Of a DNA stretch of 64,000 nucleotides, positions 16,957 through 64,000 are shown one piece after another. Every line of letters starts with the position of its first letter. The first letter of the stretch is position 1. The stretch is from Candidatus Hadarchaeales archaeon. Lineage in GTDB: Archaea > Hadarchaeota > Hadarchaeia > Hadarchaeales > WYZ-LMO6. Position numbers and translations under genes: made by a program. The DNA is taken from the NCBI GenBank assembly GCA_038736355.1, contig JAVYML010000003.1:285314-349313 (forward strand), in the 5' to 3' direction. The notes below the pieces were generated by a model. The model had not been told where the DNA came from. It made no database searches and was given only the letters and a program-made list of their open reading frames with translations.

Positions 16957-17520
16957 TTACTCTTTCGATTTGGAAGTTATCAGGTTCAAAAGAATACCCT
17001 CCAACTTTTCCCCACATTCCCTACAAAAATCCTTCCTTTTGAGATCCACCTCTAGGACGGAGTTGGAAAAACTCATCACGCATTCCCTCCGCCTGCAATG
17101 TCCCAGACCGAAGGTATGACCCAGTTCGTGAACGGCTTCCTTTACCAGTCTCTCGAGGAAAAGATCTTCCCTCCCCTCCTCCCCGTAAAAACTGGGACTC
17201 AACCTACGGAGGGAAACCAAGGCCCCCCGACCTGGACACTGGGCCAACCCGAAGACGAAGTTAAGACCTGGCGTATACAAATCGACTTCCGTTATGGCCA
17301 GAATTCTTCCTTGGCATTGCCTCAGTACCTCCTTCAACACGATGGAAGCCTCGTATTGCCCCCTCTCCTTGCGGTAAGCCATTCTCGGCACCTCCACTCG
17401 GGAAGAGGGAAGAAGCCTGAGCCTACCCCGGAAGGATTCCGATAGGGTGGGGCCCAATCCCAAAAGAATTCGGGGGGAAAGATCACCCACCGGAACCATT
17501 TTGACCTCCAGGGTTTTCAA
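16957..17520 (-). CDS. amzA: archaemetzincin (zinc metalloprotease)
   Basis: HELGHTFGLGHC metzincin motif plus the downstream Cys-rich segment CVMSFSN...CRECGEKL typical of archaemetzincins. Confidence 0.85.
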   Translation of the reverse strand: MKTLEVKMVPVGDLSPRILLGLGPTLSESFRGRLRLLPSSRVEVPRMAYRKERGQYEASIVLKEVLRQCQGRILAITEVDLYTPGLNFVFGLAQCPGRGALVSLRRLSPSFYGEEGREDLFLERLVKEAVHELGHTFGLGHCRRRECVMSFSNSVLEVDLKRKDFCRECGEKLEGILLNLITSKSKE

Positions 17521-18833: not shown

Positions 18834-19702
18834 GGATCTTCATACTTTACCGGGGACCCTTTGGGGAACAGATGGTAAACAACTTGGTGTTGGGAGGGTT
18901 GGGTAGCTCTACCGTGGGGACCTTCGAACTCACACCGGAACTCTTGGAGGAAGAACACCCGGAGGAGAAGGACCTATGGAACAGGCTCTGGGAGGAGCCT
19001 CACCGCTACCTTCCCAAAAGCCTTCCCCACGTTAAGTGCGATTTGCTCTTGGTATTGGGGATCCATTCAAAACTCGGAGACCTGGTCCCACCCATCGCAG
19101 AGAAGATGGGGGCGAAAAGCATCCTTTACCCCATCGACGACCGTCAGCATCTCCCGGAGGGAAGGAAGACCATGGAAGAGGAACTGGAGAAGAAGGGAAT
19201 TCACATAGAATTCCCGGAGCCCTTCTGTGCCCTCGAAAGGAGCGAGGACCCCTTCGTCCAGGAGTTCTGCGAACGCTTCGGCAAGCCAAGGTTCAAGGTG
19301 AAGAGGGAAGGGGATAGGATAAAGGAGGTGAGGGTTCTGAGGGATACCCCATGTGGTTCCGCTCATGCTGTGGCGAAAAAAATGCCCGGCTTTTCCTGCG
19401 GAGATCCCAGGGCCCTGAAGGAAAAACTCTTCTTCGAACACCACAACGAAGAAAACGAAAACTATTGCCTGGCGGAGATGGATCCCCTCGCCCCCTACAT
19501 GCAGGAGGCAGGGGATATCCTCGTGGATTCCTTCTTCGAAGCCTGCGGCCTCCCCACCACCAAGGACCTCATCCTCCAGGAGCTCAAGAAAGGAAGGGTA
19601 GATTTCCAGGAACTGAAAAGGAAGCTAGTGGAGGAGGAGAAGAGGTGTGAAACGGATAGGACCATAAGGAGAATCCTCAAAGAGCTTGGTTGGAACATCT
19701 AG
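18830..19702 (+). CDS. Cys-containing hypothetical protein (290 aa)
   Basis: The ATG at 18830 forms an ATGA overlap with the corrinoid protein stop. It has conserved-looking Cys positions (PFCAL, FCERFG, TPCGSAH, FSCGD, YCLAEMDP). It may belong to an archaeal DUF family, but I cannot verify this. Confidence 0.5.
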   Translation: MRIFILYRGPFGEQMVNNLVLGGLGSSTVGTFELTPELLEEEHPEEKDLWNRLWEEPHRYLPKSLPHVKCDLLLVLGIHSKLGDLVPPIAEKMGAKSILYPIDDRQHLPEGRKTMEEELEKKGIHIEFPEPFCALERSEDPFVQEFCERFGKPRFKVKREGDRIKEVRVLRDTPCGSAHAVAKKMPGFSCGDPRALKEKLFFEHHNEENENYCLAEMDPLAPYMQEAGDILVDSFFEACGLPTTKDLILQELKKGRVDFQELKRKLVEEEKRCETDRTIRRILKELGWNI

Positions 19703-21300
19703 ACACAGGGTGAGAAGGAAAGTTCCCCAACCAACCTGTACATCAGGTCGCTTTCGCTCTCCAAATTCAGGTACTCCACCCTCCTCGCCACTTCCTCCCC
19801 CTCCCTCCTCCTCCCTTTGGAAACGAGGGCCTGCCTAGCCCCCTCCAAGGCGGAGTTTCCAACCTTCTCCACCTTGTCGAGAGGGACGGAGGGAAGAAGA
19901 CCTATGGCGTAGGCGTTTTCCACCCTTATATAGGTACCAAAGGCTCCTGCCAAGTAAACCTTCTCCACCTCCTCCACCCCAATTCCATATTTTTCCAGCA
20001 GAACCTTTGTTCCCACACAAATGGCGGCCTTTGCCAGCTTCAGCTTGTCCACATCTTCCTCATCGATCTTGATCTCCCTTTCCCCTTTCGCTATCACCAC
20101 TTCCTTTCTCCCTCCGGTGAACTTTCCGGTTTCATCCATGAAACCTTTGTTGAGCATTTCCGCCAGCACATCTATCAGGGCCGAACCGCAGAGCCCCACG
20201 GGTGGGAGATCGTCTATCGTTTCGTAAGCCACCCTCCCGCTCCCATCCATCTCCACCCTGCTTATCGCTCCCGAAATTGCACCCACCCCGCATTTTATGC
20301 CACTTCCCTCGAAGGCTGGGCCGGAAGCGCAGGAAGTGGAAATCATTCTTTCCCTGTTCCCCACGACTATTTCGGTGTTTGTTCCTATGTCCACGAGCAA
20401 ACCTATTTCCTCCTTCCGGTGAAGGTCCGTGGCCAAAATACCCGCTACGGTATCGGCCCCTACAAAACCTCCTATCAAGGGCAGGGCATAGACATTGCCC
20501 ATAGGGTTCATCTTGAGACCGAGCTCGGTCGGTTTCCTGTTCTGGGCCTCCAGGGTGAAGGGCTGGAAGGGAAAGACCCCCAGAGAAGCCACAGGATGGC
20601 CCAAGAAGAGATCCCTCATGGTGGAATTACCCACCACCACCATCTCGTATACATGTTCCGGCTTCACTCCCAGTCTCTCCACCATACCGTTTACGGCCCT
20701 TCTCACCGCTTCCTCCAGCTCCCTCTGTCCCTCCTTCCTGGCATAGGCAATCCTGCTTATCACATCCCCCCCGTAAACCTCCTGAGGATTTTTCATGGAG
20801 GTTACTCCCAAAATCCTCCCCGTCTCCAAATCCACTGCATAGGCCACCAACGTGGTGGTGCCCACATCCAAGGCCAAGCCTACTATCTCCCCCTCATATT
20901 CCCCCATTTTCCTCCTTTCTTCTTTCCATTCCCAAACCACCTCCCTTCCCTCCCTCCTCACTGCGGGTTCCAGCTTTACCGGCAGGATCTTTCCCTTCTC
21001 CAGGATTTTGTATCTCCTTTCCGGCACTTCCACGATGATCCTGCCTTCCTCTTCCTCCACCCTTGCCTGACAGGCAAGTCTCTCACCGGGTTTTACGAAC
21101 TTGAGCTCGGCTTCGGTGAGGGGATTGAGACCCTCCCCCTCCACCTTCAAAAGGCATTGCCCGCAAACCCCTATTCCCCCACAGAGGGAAGGGAGTTCTA
21201 TTCCAAGCTCCTGGCAGTAGGAGAGAAGACTCCTCCCCCTTTCCAACTTGACCTTTTTACCGTAATTCCTGAAGAAGAGCTCTCCCCTCTCCATGACCAC
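19699..21300 (-). CDS. RACo-like reductive activator of corrinoid iron-sulfur protein (2Fe-2S ferredoxin domain + ASKHA ATPase)
   Basis: N-terminal plant-type ferredoxin motif (PSLCGGIGVCGQCLLKVEG...LACQARV). ASKHA phosphate motifs LALDVGTTTLVAY and LLVDIGTNTEIVVG. GGAGGAG Shine-Dalgarno-like sequence 8 nt upstream. Immediately downstream of cdhE. Confidence 0.8.
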   Translation of the reverse strand: MVMERGELFFRNYGKKVKLERGRSLLSYCQELGIELPSLCGGIGVCGQCLLKVEGEGLNPLTEAELKFVKPGERLACQARVEEEEGRIIVEVPERRYKILEKGKILPVKLEPAVRREGREVVWEWKEERRKMGEYEGEIVGLALDVGTTTLVAYAVDLETGRILGVTSMKNPQEVYGGDVISRIAYARKEGQRELEEAVRRAVNGMVERLGVKPEHVYEMVVVGNSTMRDLFLGHPVASLGVFPFQPFTLEAQNRKPTELGLKMNPMGNVYALPLIGGFVGADTVAGILATDLHRKEEIGLLVDIGTNTEIVVGNRERMISTSCASGPAFEGSGIKCGVGAISGAISRVEMDGSGRVAYETIDDLPPVGLCGSALIDVLAEMLNKGFMDETGKFTGGRKEVVIAKGEREIKIDEEDVDKLKLAKAAICVGTKVLLEKYGIGVEEVEKVYLAGAFGTYIRVENAYAIGLLPSVPLDKVEKVGNSALEGARQALVSKGRRREGEEVARRVEYLNLESESDLMYRLVGELSFSPCV

Positions 21301-59789: not shown

Positions 59790-60040
59790 CGGTCGAAAGG
59801 GCTGGCGGGATCCGTGAACGCCGGTGCATCGCCGCGGGTACACCGGAGCCACTGCCGGGAAAGCCGTACCATTTGGGTCCTCCCGCGAGTTCAGGGCGGG
59901 AACACCCTGCGATGAGCGGGTAGCCAACCCTGGTACGCAACACCGGCAGGCCCCGTCTTCCCACCACGAGGGTTAGCGGGTGGAGAGCGCCGGAAGGCGT
60001 ACGAGGAAACCCGTGGTTAGTGTGTTGGGAAGCGGGGCAC
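59790..60040 (+). ncRNA. candidate structured RNA, family unassigned
   Basis: GC-rich non-coding stretch with nested helices on the plus strand. CUGGCGG(59802-59808)/CUGCCGG, CCGGUG/CACCGG around a 14-nt loop, GGG-UCCU-CCC. A roughly 90-nt imperfect hairpin spans 59949-60039 (GCCCCG.CUUCCCA..ACGAGGGUU / AACCCGUGG...UGGGAAGCGGGGC), capped by GCGCC-GGAA-GGCGU. GNRA-type loops appear only in the plus orientation. The extent is uncertain, and the 3' third overlaps the end of the minus-strand ORF 59973-60227. Confidence 0.3.
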
Positions 60041-60227
60041 CTCTGAAAAGGCTAAGGGCGGAGAGACTTGGGAGGATCTCGTTCTCCAGGACATTATCCA
60101 GTTGCTGACGCACGGTGGAGAAGAGGGAGGAGGAAGAATAGTAAAGAATACTGACCACCCCCGCCACGGTGATGAGTACCGCTGCTAGGATGAGGAGGTA
60201 TTCCAGCGCTCCCTGGGCCCTGTTCAT
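59973..60227 (-). CDS. small prepilin-like protein with class III signal peptide (P0)
   Basis: 84 aa. MNRA|QGALEYLLILAAVLITVAGVVSILYY shows a short basic leader, Ala/Gly cleavage context, Glu at +5 and a hydrophobic helix. Confidence 0.65.
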   Translation of the reverse strand: MNRAQGALEYLLILAAVLITVAGVVSILYYSSSSLFSTVRQQLDNVLENEILPSLSALSLFRGAPLPNTLTTGFLVRLPALSTR

Positions 60228-60237
60228 CTTTCCTTTA

Positions 60238-60294
60238 GGTTTGCCAGGAGTATTAACTTACCGTGAGAAGGGTTTGCCAATTTCTTAATACTCC
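60238..60294. promoter_or_regulatory. mirrored divergent promoter: 10-bp inverted repeat GGAGTATTAA / TTAATACTCC plus direct repeat GGTTTGCCA x2
   Basis: GGTTTGCCA occurs at 60238-60246 and 60271-60279. GGAGTATTAA lies at 60247-60256 and its exact complement TTAATACTCC at 60285-60294. Each TATTAA core is about 25 nt from the start codon it faces (60227 minus strand, 60313 plus strand). Confidence 0.45.
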
Positions 60295-60312
60295 CCTCAC
60301 CCTCTCTTCTCG

Positions 60313-60909
60313 ATGGAGGAGGGGCAGGTGGGTCTGGAGTTCCTCATCATTTTCAGTAGCCTAATGGTGCTCCTGGCCGCCCTCACCCTTCCCCTGTACC
60401 AAGAGGCGAGGGACAAGGCACGGAAATTCTCCGTCCTCGCTGAGACAAGGGAAACTGCTGGGAAGATAGCGGCCGCCATAAACGCGGTATATGGAGCGGG
60501 ACCGGGAGCGAGGACCCAGACAGAGGTTTGGTTCCCCAAAGAGGTGGTTGGAATCCAAATAGGTGGATACGGCAACCTGGATGTGGATGGACTCGTGGCT
60601 TCGGACGGGGAAATCCGGAAGAATGGGAGAGCGGATGTGAGGATTCTGCTCGATTTCGATGGAGATGGAAAGTGGGACAACAAATTGGGCTCCACCGTGG
60701 TGGTGGATACCCTTCTTCCCAGTAGATGGTGGGAAAATGGGGAAGAGAGGGGAGGAAGATGGGTGAGGGAAAATGGGGTTCACGTAGAGGAAAACTTCTT
60801 CCTTCTCCCTGGCATGAGGACCAAGCATAAACTCACCTTCACCTTCGTATACGACCCCTTCCATACCTATCCGCGCAGGATCTTACTCTTAGACGAGGTG
60901 ATGGGATGA
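60313..60909 (+). CDS. prepilin-like protein P1 (198 aa)
   Basis: MEEG|QVGLEFLIIFSSLMVLLAALTL class III signal peptide with Glu at +5. DFDGDGKWDN (about nt 60652-60681) resembles a DxDxDG calcium-binding loop. Confidence 0.7.
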   Translation: MEEGQVGLEFLIIFSSLMVLLAALTLPLYQEARDKARKFSVLAETRETAGKIAAAINAVYGAGPGARTQTEVWFPKEVVGIQIGGYGNLDVDGLVASDGEIRKNGRADVRILLDFDGDGKWDNKLGSTVVVDTLLPSRWWENGEERGGRWVRENGVHVEENFFLLPGMRTKHKLTFTFVYDPFHTYPRRILLLDEVMG

Positions 60910-61346
60910 AGGGACAAACCTCGGTCGAATACCTGGTGCTCTTTTCCGCCATCTTGGTGCTGATAGCCACCTTCTCCTACTCTCTGCTCGGAACCTCCGA
61001 GAGGAAGGCCAAAGAGACCCTCTATCTTTCCCAGGCGGGATCCGCTTCCCAACTCATAGCCTCGGCCCTCGAGGGGGTGGTCTCGGAGGGAGAGGGGAGC
61101 GTGAGGACCATAACCGTGAAGTTCGACCAGCAATGGAACCTGAAGCTGAGGGAAAACGAGGTGAGGGTGGAGGTCCTGTGGGAAAAGGTGCTGGTGGCGG
61201 TGCGTCCTTGCAGGTACGGCTTCCAAGCCGAAGTATCCCGCCTCCAACCCGGGACCTATCCCGTGATCGTGGGATGGCCGGGAGATATGGAGAACCTCTG
61301 GCTGGAAAACGGAAGGATTTACCTGTACATAGAACCGAGGGAATGA
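60906..61346 (+). CDS. prepilin-like protein P2 (146 aa)
   Basis: MKG|QTSVEYLVLFSAILVLIATF with Glu at +5. ATGA overlap with P1. Confidence 0.7.
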   Translation: MKGQTSVEYLVLFSAILVLIATFSYSLLGTSERKAKETLYLSQAGSASQLIASALEGVVSEGEGSVRTITVKFDQQWNLKLRENEVRVEVLWEKVLVAVRPCRYGFQAEVSRLQPGTYPVIVGWPGDMENLWLENGRIYLYIEPRE

Positions 61347-61347
61347 G

Positions 61348-61749
61348 ATGAGGGGTTTTTTCTCCCTTGATGCCATTTTCGCCCTGACCCTCCTGATGAT
61401 CGTGTGTTCCTCCTTCCTCCACGTTTACCAGGCGAGGATGGAGGGTGCTAGGGAAGGAATAGAGGAACTGGAGATGAGGATGGCTGGGGAAGAGCTGGCG
61501 GGAGCCATCAACACCGTCTACTCCAACGGAGCTGGGTTGGAGCTCAAACTCATGCTTCAGGCGAGATCCTCCTTCACCCTGAGCTTCGATCCCTCCACGG
61601 GAAGGGTAGTGGTGAAGAAGGGTGGGAAGAGTCTGACGGTGGGAACGGTGTGTAACAACGTAGAGGCCTTTCTCCTCACACCCGAAAACTTGGAGAGACC
61701 CCTGAAAATCTACTGGAGGGAGAATCGGATAAGCGTGGTGAGTTCGTGA
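61348..61749 (+). CDS. prepilin-like protein P3 (133 aa)
   Basis: MRG|FFSLDAIFALTLLMIVCSSF with Asp at +5. Starts 1 nt after the P2 stop. Confidence 0.65.
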   Translation: MRGFFSLDAIFALTLLMIVCSSFLHVYQARMEGAREGIEELEMRMAGEELAGAINTVYSNGAGLELKLMLQARSSFTLSFDPSTGRVVVKKGGKSLTVGTVCNNVEAFLLTPENLERPLKIYWRENRISVVSS

Positions 61750-62144
61750 AGGGACAAGTAAGCCTGGAGGCACTGGTGCTTTTCGCCACCATCCTCTTGA
61801 TCCTCTCCTCCCTCCTCTATCTGGGGGAAGGAACGAATGAGACCCAGCTCATCCTGGCCTCCGCTAGGGATGGGACCGAAAACGCCCTCTCGAGGCTTCA
61901 ATGGGAATACGGGGGTACCGGTAGGATCAGGGAGGTGAAGATGGTGAGGGGAACGGTGAAGATCTCGGTGATGGTTTGGGGGATGAATTGTCCGGAGAAC
62001 TTGGTGAAGGAAGAAGTGAGGAGGGATGCCCTAGGTTTCATGTGGAAGGCCGTGGGGGGAGTTTTTCCCTCCCTCACCCAGCCCCTTCGAACCTCGAGGG
62101 GAACCTACGACGTGGAGGTCTCGGTAGAAGTGGTGGGGAGATGA
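61746..62144 (+). CDS. prepilin-like protein P4 (132 aa)
   Basis: (GTG)KG|QVSLEALVLFATILLILSSLL with Glu at +5. GTGA overlap with P3. Confidence 0.7.
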   Translation: MKGQVSLEALVLFATILLILSSLLYLGEGTNETQLILASARDGTENALSRLQWEYGGTGRIREVKMVRGTVKISVMVWGMNCPENLVKEEVRRDALGFMWKAVGGVFPSLTQPLRTSRGTYDVEVSVEVVGR

Positions 62145-63307
62145 AGGAAAGGGGACAAGTTCTGACGTTGGACATGTTCCTCGCCCTCTCCCTCACCGCC
62201 TTGCTCTTGGGCTATTCCGGATTGGTAATGGAACACGTACAAACAAGGGCTCGGGAAGAAATCTCCCGATACTCTCTGGAGAGGATGGCTAACGATGCCG
62301 TGGAAGCTCTGGTGAAGACGAAGGGCCTCCCCGAGAACTGGGAAGATCAACCCTCCTCCCTCCAGGTGCCCGGATTGGCCGATAAACCCAACCTCCTCAA
62401 CCTAAGGAAGCTGGTATACTTGAGGGAACTGTGCAGGTGGGAGAACTGGACCTCTTCGAGACCAGAAATAAAGGCGGTGGAAAGATTCTTCGGAGGTCAG
62501 AACTTCGAGGTAAGGGTCCTTTACAGGCAACTCCTCCTGAGGGCCAAAGTGGCAGGCTTGAACTCCACGCTCAATACTATCATCCAAGGGGTAAAGGTTT
62601 ATTCGAGACTGGAGAACTTGGGAGCCCAGCTCAGGGTTAGGGTAAGGTTGGAGAAAAACAACCTGGTGAAAGAACAGGTGGCGCAAGGGAAAACCTTCTC
62701 GATGGTGGTCTCCCTCTATCCCCTCACGGTGGAGGTGGTGTCGGACGGAAAGACGGTTGGGGTTTGGTGTGAAGGGGTGATCTGGGACTTTTGGCCGGGA
62801 TGGGACCTGGGAGGAAAACCCGGGGCAGAGAACTCGGTGGAAGTAACAGTGGCCAAGCGCTTCCTCGTCCTTCCTGCGGGAGAATTGAGAAACGCGGTGG
62901 AGAACCGCAGACATCATGCCAGGCCAGATCCCTACACTCTGCCCTTCCTCGTCCGACCCGGGGAGTTGGACTTTTTCGACTGGTATGTGGTGCTCTCACC
63001 TAGTTCCCCCAACAAGCCCGTCACAGACGTTTGGGTCAACCGCTCCAGCGGAAATCCTGATTACCACTTTCCGTGGGATACCCTCTTTGCCATCAGATCC
63101 CATGGACAGGACTATTCGAAGGTACCCCTCACCGAAACCGAAAACGGTGGAAATCCAAACAATTATCTGATCTTGAAGGTGACCGGGAACCCGGCCGAAT
63201 ACGTGGATGTGGCGATAGTGGCCGTTCCCCGTTGTTCTCCCCAAGAATTGTGTATACAGGCTGGAACCCTTCTTTCCGGTATCCTAGAGGTGAGGATTTG
63301 GAGATGA
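62141..63307 (+). CDS. prepilin-like protein P5 (388 aa)
   Basis: MKERG|QVLTLDMFLALSLTALLLGY. The ATG at 62141 forms an ATGA overlap with P4. The track start at 61976 adds a non-hydrophobic, out-of-context extension. Large globular C-terminal region of unknown family. Confidence 0.65.
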   Translation: MKERGQVLTLDMFLALSLTALLLGYSGLVMEHVQTRAREEISRYSLERMANDAVEALVKTKGLPENWEDQPSSLQVPGLADKPNLLNLRKLVYLRELCRWENWTSSRPEIKAVERFFGGQNFEVRVLYRQLLLRAKVAGLNSTLNTIIQGVKVYSRLENLGAQLRVRVRLEKNNLVKEQVAQGKTFSMVVSLYPLTVEVVSDGKTVGVWCEGVIWDFWPGWDLGGKPGAENSVEVTVAKRFLVLPAGELRNAVENRRHHARPDPYTLPFLVRPGELDFFDWYVVLSPSSPNKPVTDVWVNRSSGNPDYHFPWDTLFAIRSHGQDYSKVPLTETENGGNPNNYLILKVTGNPAEYVDVAIVAVPRCSPQELCIQAGTLLSGILEVRIWR

Positions 63308-64000
63308 AGGATGGTGGTTTCATCTTCAGCCTGGATGCGTGCCTGGCGACGGTGGTGATGATGATCGCCGTGGCGGGCTTGGCCCATTTGGAGGTTGAGG
63401 GACCGGGACATGGTTACTTGAAGTTGGAGAGGTATGCACAGGACACTCTGAGCGTGATGGATGGAAGGGGAATAACAAGATACGTGATCGACAGCCTGAA
63501 CAACCTCCAGTACGCCGAGGCTGCCAGAGCGGTGAGGGAGAACCTGCTCCTCCTCCTTCCCTCGACCGTGAACTTCAGATACGTGATAGGAACGGGGGAA
63601 AACCTCCTGTTGGAAGTCTACAAAGATAACGGGGAGAACTGGAGGGAAAGATGGGAAAATACGAGAGAAAGGGCCTTGGCCCTACACCTCACCTGCGAGT
63701 TCATACATACGGTGGAAAACCTGGACGTTCTGATATGGGCGGATGATCCCCAAGACCTTTGGTTCGCCTCCCAAGTGGTCAAACCTGGATGGACCTACAG
63801 GGTAGTCAGTAACGAAAACACCTTTGTGGCCTACTTGGAAAACAAAATAGAACCCAACTGGTATCCCGACGTGGTTTTCCTTCCCGACGTGAGTGTGTAT
63901 TGGAGTGATGAGACCCTCCGCAAACTGGTGGATTACAACATGTTCAAGCTCATCGTGGGGGGTAGGGAGGTAGGGGGAGGGGTGGTGGCGGGAGGGGATA
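63304..64000 (+). CDS. prepilin-like protein P6, 3' end outside the window (>232 aa)
   Basis: Hand translation gives MKDGG|FIFSLDACLATVVMMIAVAGLAHL..., open to nt 64000 with no stop. ATGA overlap with P5. It is absent from the ORF track because it has no stop in the window. Confidence 0.6.
   Translation, partial: MKDGGFIFSLDACLATVVMMIAVAGLAHLEVEGPGHGYLKLERYAQDTLSVMDGRGITRYVIDSLNNLQYAEAARAVRENLLLLLPSTVNFRYVIGTGENLLLEVYKDNGENWRERWENTRERALALHLTCEFIHTVENLDVLIWADDPQDLWFASQVVKPGWTYRVVSNENTFVAYLENKIEPNWYPDVVFLPDVSVYWSDETLRKLVDYNMFKLIVGGREVGGGVVAGGD

Follow-up and report, generated by a model that had tools for sequence, protein, structure and literature searches.

A conserved operon in Hadarchaeota that encodes type IV pilin-like proteins, and its probable place in an Epd/Tad-like pilus system

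Does a group of seven adjacent open reading frames (ORFs) at the end of a 64,000-nt stretch of DNA from a Candidatus Hadarchaeales archaeon (contig JAVYML010000003.1; the whole stretch is called the window below) encode an archaeal type IV filament and, if so, is the filament of a new kind? Hadarchaeota are uncultured or barely cultured archaea of the subsurface and of hot springs. The alkane-degrading members of this phylum are said to encode no type IV pilin (PilA) (PMC11297162). A first-pass annotation made from the letters of the window had read the seven ORFs, P0 to P6, as the pilin locus of an archaeal type IV filament, and had implied a new system. The first part of that reading was supported by our analysis: the ORFs form an operon for type IV pilin-like proteins that is conserved in Hadarchaeota, and this operon is probably the pilin and accessory operon of an Epd/Tad-like type IV pilus of the clade 1/System 1 class. 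Because it belongs to a class that has already been catalogued, the locus is a case of a known kind: it adds an uncharacterised example, previously undescribed in the phylum, and does not define a new type of filament system.

A chain of prepilin-like genes kept across Hadarchaeota

P0 (59973–60227, minus strand) is an 84-aa prepilin that starts with MNRA/QGALEY (a slash marks the end of the leader) and has nearly no globular part. On the plus strand lie four genes for minor pilin-like proteins, P1 (60313–60909, 198 aa, MEEG/QVGLEF), P2 (60906–61346, 146 aa, MKG/QTSVEY), P3 (61348–61749, 133 aa, MRG/FFSLDA), and P4 (61746–62144, 132 aa, GTG start, MKG/QVSLEA), followed by those for a large pilin-like protein, P5 (62141–63307, 388 aa, MKERG/QVLTLDMF), and for P6 (63304–64000, MKDGG/FIFSLDA), which leaves the window after the first 232 of its 428 aa. 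The junctions P1/P2, P4/P5, and P5/P6 are ATGA overlaps, P3/P4 is a GTGA overlap, and P2 and P3 are separated by a 1-nt gap. A contig of sequencing run SRR27730027, designated L001, overlaps the end of the window over 11,860 nt at 100% identity and extends beyond it. On this contig, P6 is present at its full length of 428 aa (L001:11164–12450), and the same chain continues with P7 (window-equivalent 64587–64943; 118 aa, pilin-like, MREERG/FVLTGMALLL), the start of which overlaps the P6 stop by 4 nt, and, after a 2-nt gap, with the gene for a DUF2101 protein (window-equivalent 64946–65641; 231 aa), a membrane protein with a Pfam match at 8e−29 and four transmembrane segments readable in its sequence. 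The positions and N-termini given in the first-pass annotation agreed with the ORF coordinates, and the tight chaining of P1 to P6 that it described was found at every junction. In the public gene calls on L001, P0 is missed, with a 50-aa ORF on the opposite strand called instead, and P1 and P4 start 15 nt and 30 nt too late, respectively, which removes their signal peptides; these calls help to explain why the proteins have not been recognised as pilins in the databases. The present analysis provides annotation for eight protein families that are publicly labelled hypothetical.

A class III signal is visible by eye in all eight proteins, P0 to P7. We scored it with a strict rule that asks for a leader of at most 12 residues, an acidic or basic residue at −1 or −2 of the Gly/Ala, an allowed residue at +1, charges only up to +6, and a Kyte-Doolittle hydropathy that averages at least 1.9 over positions +7 to +21; this hydropathy-based rule was used instead of an earlier, looser one, in which S, T, G, P, and Y were counted as hydrophobic and which matched 23 ORFs. 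Seven of the eight proteins passed, with P5 falling slightly below the hydropathy cut, and one further ORF passed among the 238 ORFs that reach 80 aa or more in the six frames of the 64 kb (1 of the 231 others). The Gly or Ala at the end of the leader is followed by Gln in P0, P1, P2, P4, and P5, with the acidic residue of these proteins at +5, except in P5, where it is at +6; the +1 residue of P3, P6, and P7 is Phe. The N-terminal motif of each family was kept across 19–34 homologues, namely RGQxxxE in P0, P1, P2, and P4, RGFFSIDA in P3 (31 orthologues), ERGQVFTLDMF in P5, RGFIFSLDA in P6, and RGFVLSGIALLL in P7; the consensus M-RGQLSIEF was common to 30 orthologues of P1, which is a paralogue of P2, and RGQSSAEM was found in 31 orthologues of P4.

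When P0–P6 were searched against Pfam and NCBIfam, the Pfam Class_IIIsignal model (PF04021, cutoff 23.7 bits) matched P0 (30 bits) and P2 (25.1 bits), P4 stayed under the cutoff at 17 bits, and no family was found for the others. The first-pass reading of these N-termini as class III signals is supported. A match of P3 to the ComGE minor pilin (E = 0.013) and one to TIGR04205 were weak, reflected no more than the N-terminal helix, and were rejected. The fact that only two of the eight proteins reach the Class_IIIsignal cutoff, the rest being without a family, could be taken to mean that the prepilin likeness arose by chance from ordinary N-terminal membrane anchors, and that the ORFs either code for membrane proteins with no relation to one another or are not real genes. 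This explanation is effectively refuted: one other ORF of 238 fits the rule, the motifs are conserved within families, the operon is physically linked to peptidase, TadC, and ATPase genes in many genomes, the structure model of P5 has a long pilin helix, and profile alignment with Thermococcus gave a clean diagonal, as described below.

To compare gene order, we located the window proteins in 37 Hadarchaeota loci, first with phmmer and afterwards with family hidden Markov models; this homology mapping replaced longest-ORF gene calling, which was misled by antisense ORFs in the GC-rich DNA. The order P1-P2-P3-P4-P5-P6-P7-DUF2101 was the same in all loci that are long enough to reveal it, and the synteny of P1–P7 with DUF2101 extends over about 35 Hadarchaeota species. 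In most species, a homologue of P0 lies on the opposite strand downstream of DUF2101, and is followed by one to three more Class_IIIsignal pilins (usually about 120–135 aa), a pair of TadC genes, and a T2SSE ATPase gene, the last being located 2.6–6.3 kb beyond DUF2101, within a convergent module that also holds a prepilin peptidase gene, in at least 15 Hadarchaeota species. For example, the convergent block of Hadarchaeum yellowstonense YNP_45 consists of HtpX, LemA, a peptidase with A24 and Arc_PepC domains, a Class_IIIsignal pilin, TadC, TadC, and the ATPase. This downstream linkage in many genomes indicates a physical connection, throughout the phylum, between the operon and a complete type IV assembly machinery, and the Epd/Tad-like gene set was complete in every examined Hadarchaeota locus long enough to hold it. 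In the subclade of the window (L001, L002, L007, and L008), P0 lies upstream instead and no ATPase gene occurs within 10 kb, which shows how the pilus gene set is split in one subclade. All of the named organisms among the 44 matches to P6 are Hadarchaeota/Hadesarchaea or MSBL1. As a separate observation, the HtpX-type M48 protease and LemA genes of H. yellowstonense (L014:12646–14192) lie between DUF2101 and the prepilin peptidase.

Assembly genes in trans and the assignment to clade 1

Among the genes called at positions 17000–64000 of the window (its first ~17 kb are unannotated), there was no assembly ATPase, platform, or peptidase gene, in agreement with the first-pass annotation. In the nearest collected species (L079), the ATPase gene and two TadC genes are located on a separate contig, and the ATPase is a protein of 2,038 aa with three inteins. 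When the L079 TadC was used as a query, an 87% identical protein was found on contig L166, which likewise comes from run SRR27730027. L166 encodes an A24 peptidase with an Arc_PepC domain (256 aa; A24 47.7 bits, Arc_PepC 32.5 bits) adjoining an intein-bearing T2SSE ATPase (2,023 aa), a DUF515 protein upstream of the ATPase (31.3 bits against a cutoff of 29), and two TadC proteins. The TadC proteins measure 361 and 299 aa in L166 and L079, and 357 and 308 aa in H. yellowstonense (L014), and all belong to PF00482/T2SSF. The accessions of the L166 TadC (MEM0358410.1) and of the DUF2101 protein of the window (MEM0359684.1) are 1,274 apart, as expected of one genome submission, pointing to the same metagenome-assembled genome (MAG). 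The peptidase, the ATPase, and the two TadC proteins are thus encoded in the same organism as the window operon, in trans, and the presence of both a peptidase and an ATPase leaves the identification of the locus as a filament locus standing.

The pilus ATPase looks like a hot spot for inteins. Those of L166 (3928–9999) and L079 (577–6693) contain LAGLIDADG homing-endonuclease domains, three of which are readable in L079, and oversized ATPase orthologues of 930–1188 aa occur in several Thermococcus, Hydrothermarchaeota, and Iainarchaeota loci (L073:7629–11066, L031, L051, L080, and L083).

Scanning with an alignment of DUF2101 proteins recovered loci of Thermococcus, Hydrothermarchaeum, and others, in which the gene closes a chain of pilin-like genes as well. 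Seven Thermococcus gene-position families were then compared with nine Hadarchaeota families by profile-profile alignment with hhalign, and the resulting matrix was cleanly diagonal, with probabilities of 95.6–99.7%. Thermococcus T2 aligned with P2 at 98.4% over 143 columns (and with P1 at 98.2%), T3 with P3 at 98.0% over 92 columns, T4 with P4 at 97.2% over 125 columns, T5 (475–818 aa) with P5 at 98.5% over 129 columns, T6 with P6 at 95.6% over 100 columns, T7 with P7 at 95.6% over 60 columns, confined to the N-terminus, and TD with DUF2101 at 99.7% over 217 columns. The Thermococcus counterparts of P5–P7 are 475–1196 aa long, and the protein at the P7 position of locus L165 carries a DUF2341 domain (1.5e−22). 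Another contig of the same Thermococcus MAG encodes, in order, DUF515, an unassigned 286-aa ORF, an ATPase with an intein, TadC, and TadC. The nearest relatives of the Hadarchaeota ATPase outside the phylum are likewise those of Thermococcus (60–63% identity), followed by those of Hydrothermarchaeota, by those of Micrarchaeota and Iainarchaeota (about 50%), and by bacterial TadA/CpaF (about 44%). The ATPase reached 275 bits with the NCBIfam TadA family model TIGR03819 (cutoff 373) and 347 bits with the FlaI model (cutoff 550).

The only ATPases of this kind in Thermococci are those of clade 1 and of the archaellum (Table S3). The clade 1 system comprises a CpaF-family ATPase (arCOG01819), two TadC genes, EppA (arCOG02300), small stand-alone major pilins, at least five minor pilins, large DUF2341 proteins that have been likened to PilY, and extra membrane proteins, its accessories including the four-transmembrane protein COG4025 (arCOG05786) and COG1627 (arCOG03421) (PMC4858521). 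A 2026 preprint by Sivabalasarma and Albers places System 1 in methanogens, Thermococcales, and DPANN archaea, ties it to the Epd pilus, and regards Tad as probably derived from the archaeal Epd type. The Hadarchaeota genes resemble clade 1 of Thermococci and class I methanogens in a CpaF-like ATPase, the two TadC genes and the DUF515 gene beside the ATPase, in the A24 peptidase with an archaeal C-terminal domain, in a short stand-alone candidate major pilin, in at least five minor pilins with Gly/Gln..Glu signals, in the large distal pilin-like proteins, and in the four-transmembrane DUF2101 protein that closes the operon, the gene order being identical to that of Thermococcus. They differ in that Hadarchaeota stood outside the 2016 census, that a single Thermococcus gene is represented by the tandem duplicates P1 and P2, and that P5–P7 are shorter (388, 428, and 118 aa versus 475–1196 aa) and lack DUF2341, P6 having a part resembling glutamine amidotransferase (GATase) instead. 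Unlike in clade 1, no FleN/MinD gene was seen in the Hadarchaeota locus.

The Epd pilus of Methanococcus maripaludis has prepilin signals with Gly at −1, Gln at +1, and Glu at +5 and a major pilin of about 74 aa, and its pilin and accessory operon is separate from the locus of the ATPase and two platform genes (PMC3875500). In comparison with this system (EpdA–E, EppA, EpdJ/K/L), the Hadarchaeota genes share class III signals that end in Gly and are followed by +1 Gln and +5 Glu, a head-less pilin of about 70–80 aa as the major or candidate major subunit, a multi-gene operon, and, in the subclade of the window, an ATPase and two platform proteins encoded in trans; EppA, however, lies inside the M. 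maripaludis pilin operon, whereas the Hadarchaeota peptidase gene lies beside the ATPase gene and its product scores under the EppA equivalog, and three of the eight Hadarchaeota proteins have Phe at +1. The bacterial Tad/Flp system (Flp, TadE/F, CpaF/TadA, TadB/TadC, and TadV) also has a head-less short pilin, a CpaF-type ATPase, two half-size platform proteins, and a peptidase without a methyltransferase domain. In contrast to that system, Hadarchaeota have no secretin, RcpC, or TadZ-type parts, their pilin-like genes are far more numerous and larger, and DUF2101 and DUF515 are archaeal accessories.

Taken together, the Thermococcus operon, which is collinear with the Hadarchaeota one and homologous to it by profile, fits clade 1 through DUF2341 and DUF2101 (PMC4858521), and the ATPase that goes with the operon is CpaF-like and adjoins DUF515 and a pair of TadC genes. 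The new system implied by the first-pass annotation is therefore not upheld, and its statement that nothing resembled Epd does not hold either, as signals of the Gly/Gln...Glu(+5) form are those of the Epd/EppA (DUF361) type (PMC3875500). HMM and profile comparisons place the locus in a catalogued system, though that system is experimentally uncharacterised in this phylum. No new kind of machine is revealed; rather, the clade 1 system is extended to a new phylum, with DUF2101 and DUF515 tied to it by conserved synteny.

Several points weigh against this assignment. The Hadarchaeota filament is predicted from gene sequences, and its ATPase was placed in the clade by best matches and gene context. 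DUF2101 is presumably COG4025, and hence arCOG05786, to judge from the source of the Pfam seed, the number of transmembrane segments, and the context; likewise, DUF515 is presumably COG1627. Searches of the literature and supplements for "DUF2101" returned nothing, and the link to arCOG05786 runs through the COG number in Table S1. The Hadarchaeota A24 peptidases with Arc_PepC are 256–277 aa long, and the peptidase scored 43.8 bits with the EppA equivalog model (cutoff 450) and 44.9 bits with that of FlaK (cutoff 330). The likeness to the M. maripaludis Epd pilus (mmp0231–0241) was drawn from published features, and in that species it took mass spectrometry to identify the major pilin, MMP1685, whose gene is not part of the pilin operon (PMC3875500). 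The role of P0 as a major pilin is something that we infer, and at 84 aa it exceeds most of its relatives (56–71 aa). Finally, domain searches of P5, P6, and P7 of the window found no DUF2341 and no recognised adhesin domain.

The candidate major pilin and the distal proteins

P0 is transcribed alone, divergently from the P1–P7 chain. Nineteen close homologues, usually of 56–84 aa, were found among the Hadarchaeota loci; in the other genomes they lie 3' of DUF2101 and adjoin further pilins, TadC, and the ATPase; a search of the P0 sequence against the PDB found nothing. The divergent promoter region between P0 and P1 (60247..60294) contains an exact 10-nt inverted pair of TTAATACTCC, with one copy at 60247–60256 (minus strand) and the other at 60285–60294 (plus strand), 29 and 28 nt 5' of the P0 and P1 starts, respectively. 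The sequence occurs only twice in the 64 kb, compared with 0.03 matches expected by chance, so the mirrored promoter described in the first-pass annotation is real as a sequence feature. CTTAATACTCC is also found 5' of P1 in the sister species L002. To judge from their position relative to archaeal TATA boxes, the two copies may be TATA-box-like elements with a promoter role, and their spacing would fit TATA boxes that drive leaderless or short-leader mRNAs. A 9-nt direct repeat, GGTTTGCCA, at 60238–60246 and 60271–60279 (33-nt spacing) flanks these elements, where a regulator could bind; as a signal in its own right it was rejected as not significant, since 8 of 100 shuffles gave at least two matches.

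The most reasonable reading is that P0 is the candidate major pilin, Flp/EpdE-like, short, and equipped with its own promoter-like element, and that P1–P6 are a minor-pilin or tip set, as had been proposed in the first-pass annotation. Alternatively, P0 might be a minor or alternative pilin, and the main subunit another stand-alone pilin encoded elsewhere. Precedents for such an arrangement are known: MMP1685 of M. maripaludis lies outside the operon and several similar pilins of about 70 aa are dispensable (PMC3875500), and multiple paralogous families of major pilins were noted by Makarova et al. (PMC4858521). Moreover, one to three further Class_IIIsignal genes stand beside the P0 homologue in other Hadarchaeota. 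P0, however, is the sole head-less pilin in the ~85 kb examined around the operon and has its own TATA-like element, and its family is kept beside the system in nearly all Hadarchaeota loci; we therefore regard a different major pilin as a possibility, though a doubtful one.

The proteins at the distal end of the operon are distinguished by the parts that follow the pilin-like N-terminus. The AlphaFold2 (AF2) model of P5 (mean predicted local distance difference test score, pLDDT, 88.9) has a 50-residue N-terminal helix (residues 10–59), which in the model appears to be a canonical pilin stem, followed by beta-rich domains. In the P5 family, about 130 aa at the N-terminus form a conserved module, the beta-rich C-terminal part varies, and most of the 151 representative clusters have only residues 1–130 in common. 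A profile search of P5 against the PDB found nothing, and no fold name was assigned from the low-scoring beta-sandwich and jelly-roll noise that Foldseek returned against the PDB. P6 combines a pilin-like N-terminus with an alpha/beta head that resembles class I glutamine amidotransferases (GATase1) (AF2 pLDDT 80), and its Foldseek matches were TrpG (1i1q_B/1i7q_B, TM-score on the target 0.63–0.65), gamma-glutamyl hydrolase, and Agd3. In the model, the head has the GATase1 fold; because no Cys or His was invariant among 27 homologues when the catalytic Cys-His-Glu triad was sought, it is probably not an amidotransferase enzyme, and activity of this kind is not predicted. No member of the P5 and P6 families gave a significant or recurring Pfam match, and a match of P6 to DUF7262 (E = 0.005–0.015) was dropped, as none of the 27 homologues reproduced it at E ≤ 0.01. 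The analysis thus provides two confident structure models, of P5 and P6, for large pilin-like proteins. Within Hadarchaeota, many P6 proteins are only about 160 aa long and lack the GATase-like head, and P7 reaches about 235 aa in many species, compared with 118 aa here.

A reduced version of the locus was observed in DPANN archaea (L069:4723–9334, Iainarchaeota; L039–L043 and L052–L066, Micrarchaeota, Iainarchaeota, and unclassified archaea), beside a homologous ATPase gene. It contains several short P0-like pilins and P1/P2-like, P4-like, and DUF2101-like (7e−14) genes, and its P5-like and P6-like genes are short (about 140–175 aa), suggesting that the conserved core of P5 and P6 is the N-terminal module only.

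We tentatively propose that P5, P6, P7, and DUF2101 may constitute a conserved but undescribed distal module, in which a pilin socket of about 60–130 residues would carry swappable C-terminal domains. If this tentative proposal is correct, such a module could be common to Hadarchaeota and Thermococcales and, in part, to Hydrothermarchaeota and DPANN archaea, and its cargo might be the GATase-like domain in P6, nothing in many Hadarchaeota, and DUF2341 giants in Thermococcus. The pilus tip would then be a modular display platform, the cargo of which sets what is bound, for example, the syntrophic partners of alkane-degrading Hadarchaeota.

The swappable, sizeable non-pilin domains of P5–P7 also bear on another explanation, namely, that the genes build a short pseudopilus or display structure, similar to a bindosome or a type II secretion system (T2SS), that presents these domains or secretes or anchors proteins. 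In their 2026 preprint, Sivabalasarma and Albers argue that type IV filament machineries of archaea are functionalised for substrate binding by many of the proteins with class III signals, and no retraction ATPase gene was seen beside the assembly module in the H. yellowstonense block or on L166. Nevertheless, domain searches detected no substrate-binding-protein domains, almost every Hadarchaeota locus has a head-less pilin of the P0 family linked with the system, as in Flp/Epd filaments, and the characterised M. maripaludis relative makes true pili (PMC3875500); this explanation is accordingly improbable, and an Epd/Tad-like pilus is preferred.

In such a pilus, the A24 peptidase would cut behind the Gly or Ala of each leader, and the CpaF-like ATPase, together with both TadC proteins, would pull the mature subunits out of the membrane and join them into a polymer held by their hydrophobic N-terminal helices. 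Within it, P0 would provide the bulk or shaft of a thin Flp/EpdE-like filament, P1–P4, paralogues with small heads, would be minor pilins that prime assembly, and P5–P7, with their pilin module and swappable C-terminal domains, could form an adhesive end at the tip or surface, like PilY1/minor-pilin or GspK-type complexes. DUF2101 may be an accessory embedded in the membrane at the base, and DUF515 a membrane accessory. Large members of minor-pilin priming complexes are thought to cap the filament. The resemblance to the FimU-PilVWX-PilY1 complex of type IVa pili and to GspHIJK of the T2SS lies in the four to seven co-transcribed, low-abundance pilins, including large members with extra domains; no kinship of sequence or fold is detectable beyond the N-terminal helix, and the place of P5–P7 at the tip is inferred. 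The same minor-pilin tip analogy was drawn for DUF2341 proteins by Makarova et al. (PMC4858521). The role of the pilus is likely to be adhesion to surfaces or partner cells.

Genes around the operon

The annotated neighbours of the operon in the window are housekeeping genes, including those for phenylalanyl-tRNA synthetase (PheRS), carbon monoxide dehydrogenase/acetyl-CoA synthase (CODH/ACS), and the tetrahydromethanopterin (H4MPT) pathway. On the 3' side, the DUF2101 stop has an ATGA overlap with a gene for a GMC-family oxidoreductase (L001:13498–15405, window-equivalent 65638–67545), which is followed by an acyl-CoA dehydrogenase gene. This coupling of DUF2101 with the oxidoreductase was seen only in the subclade of the window (L001, L007, and L008), in loci that lack the convergent block of assembly genes found in other species. 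Some 6 kb beyond the operon on its 3' side, L001 encodes proteins of 490 aa (18880–20352, minus strand) and 70 aa (20357–20569, minus strand) that match no Pfam family and adjoin a GPN-loop GTPase-like gene. Positions ~19700–40400 of the window are occupied by a large CODH/ACS block (CdhA–E-type genes and a RACo-type corrinoid activator), together with genes of the H4MPT branch of the Wood-Ljungdahl pathway (MCH, MTD, FTR, formylmethanofuran dehydrogenase-like subunits, and an MTHFR-like gene). The CODH/ACS and H4MPT genes fit the carbon-monoxide and C1 metabolism proposed for Hadarchaeota.

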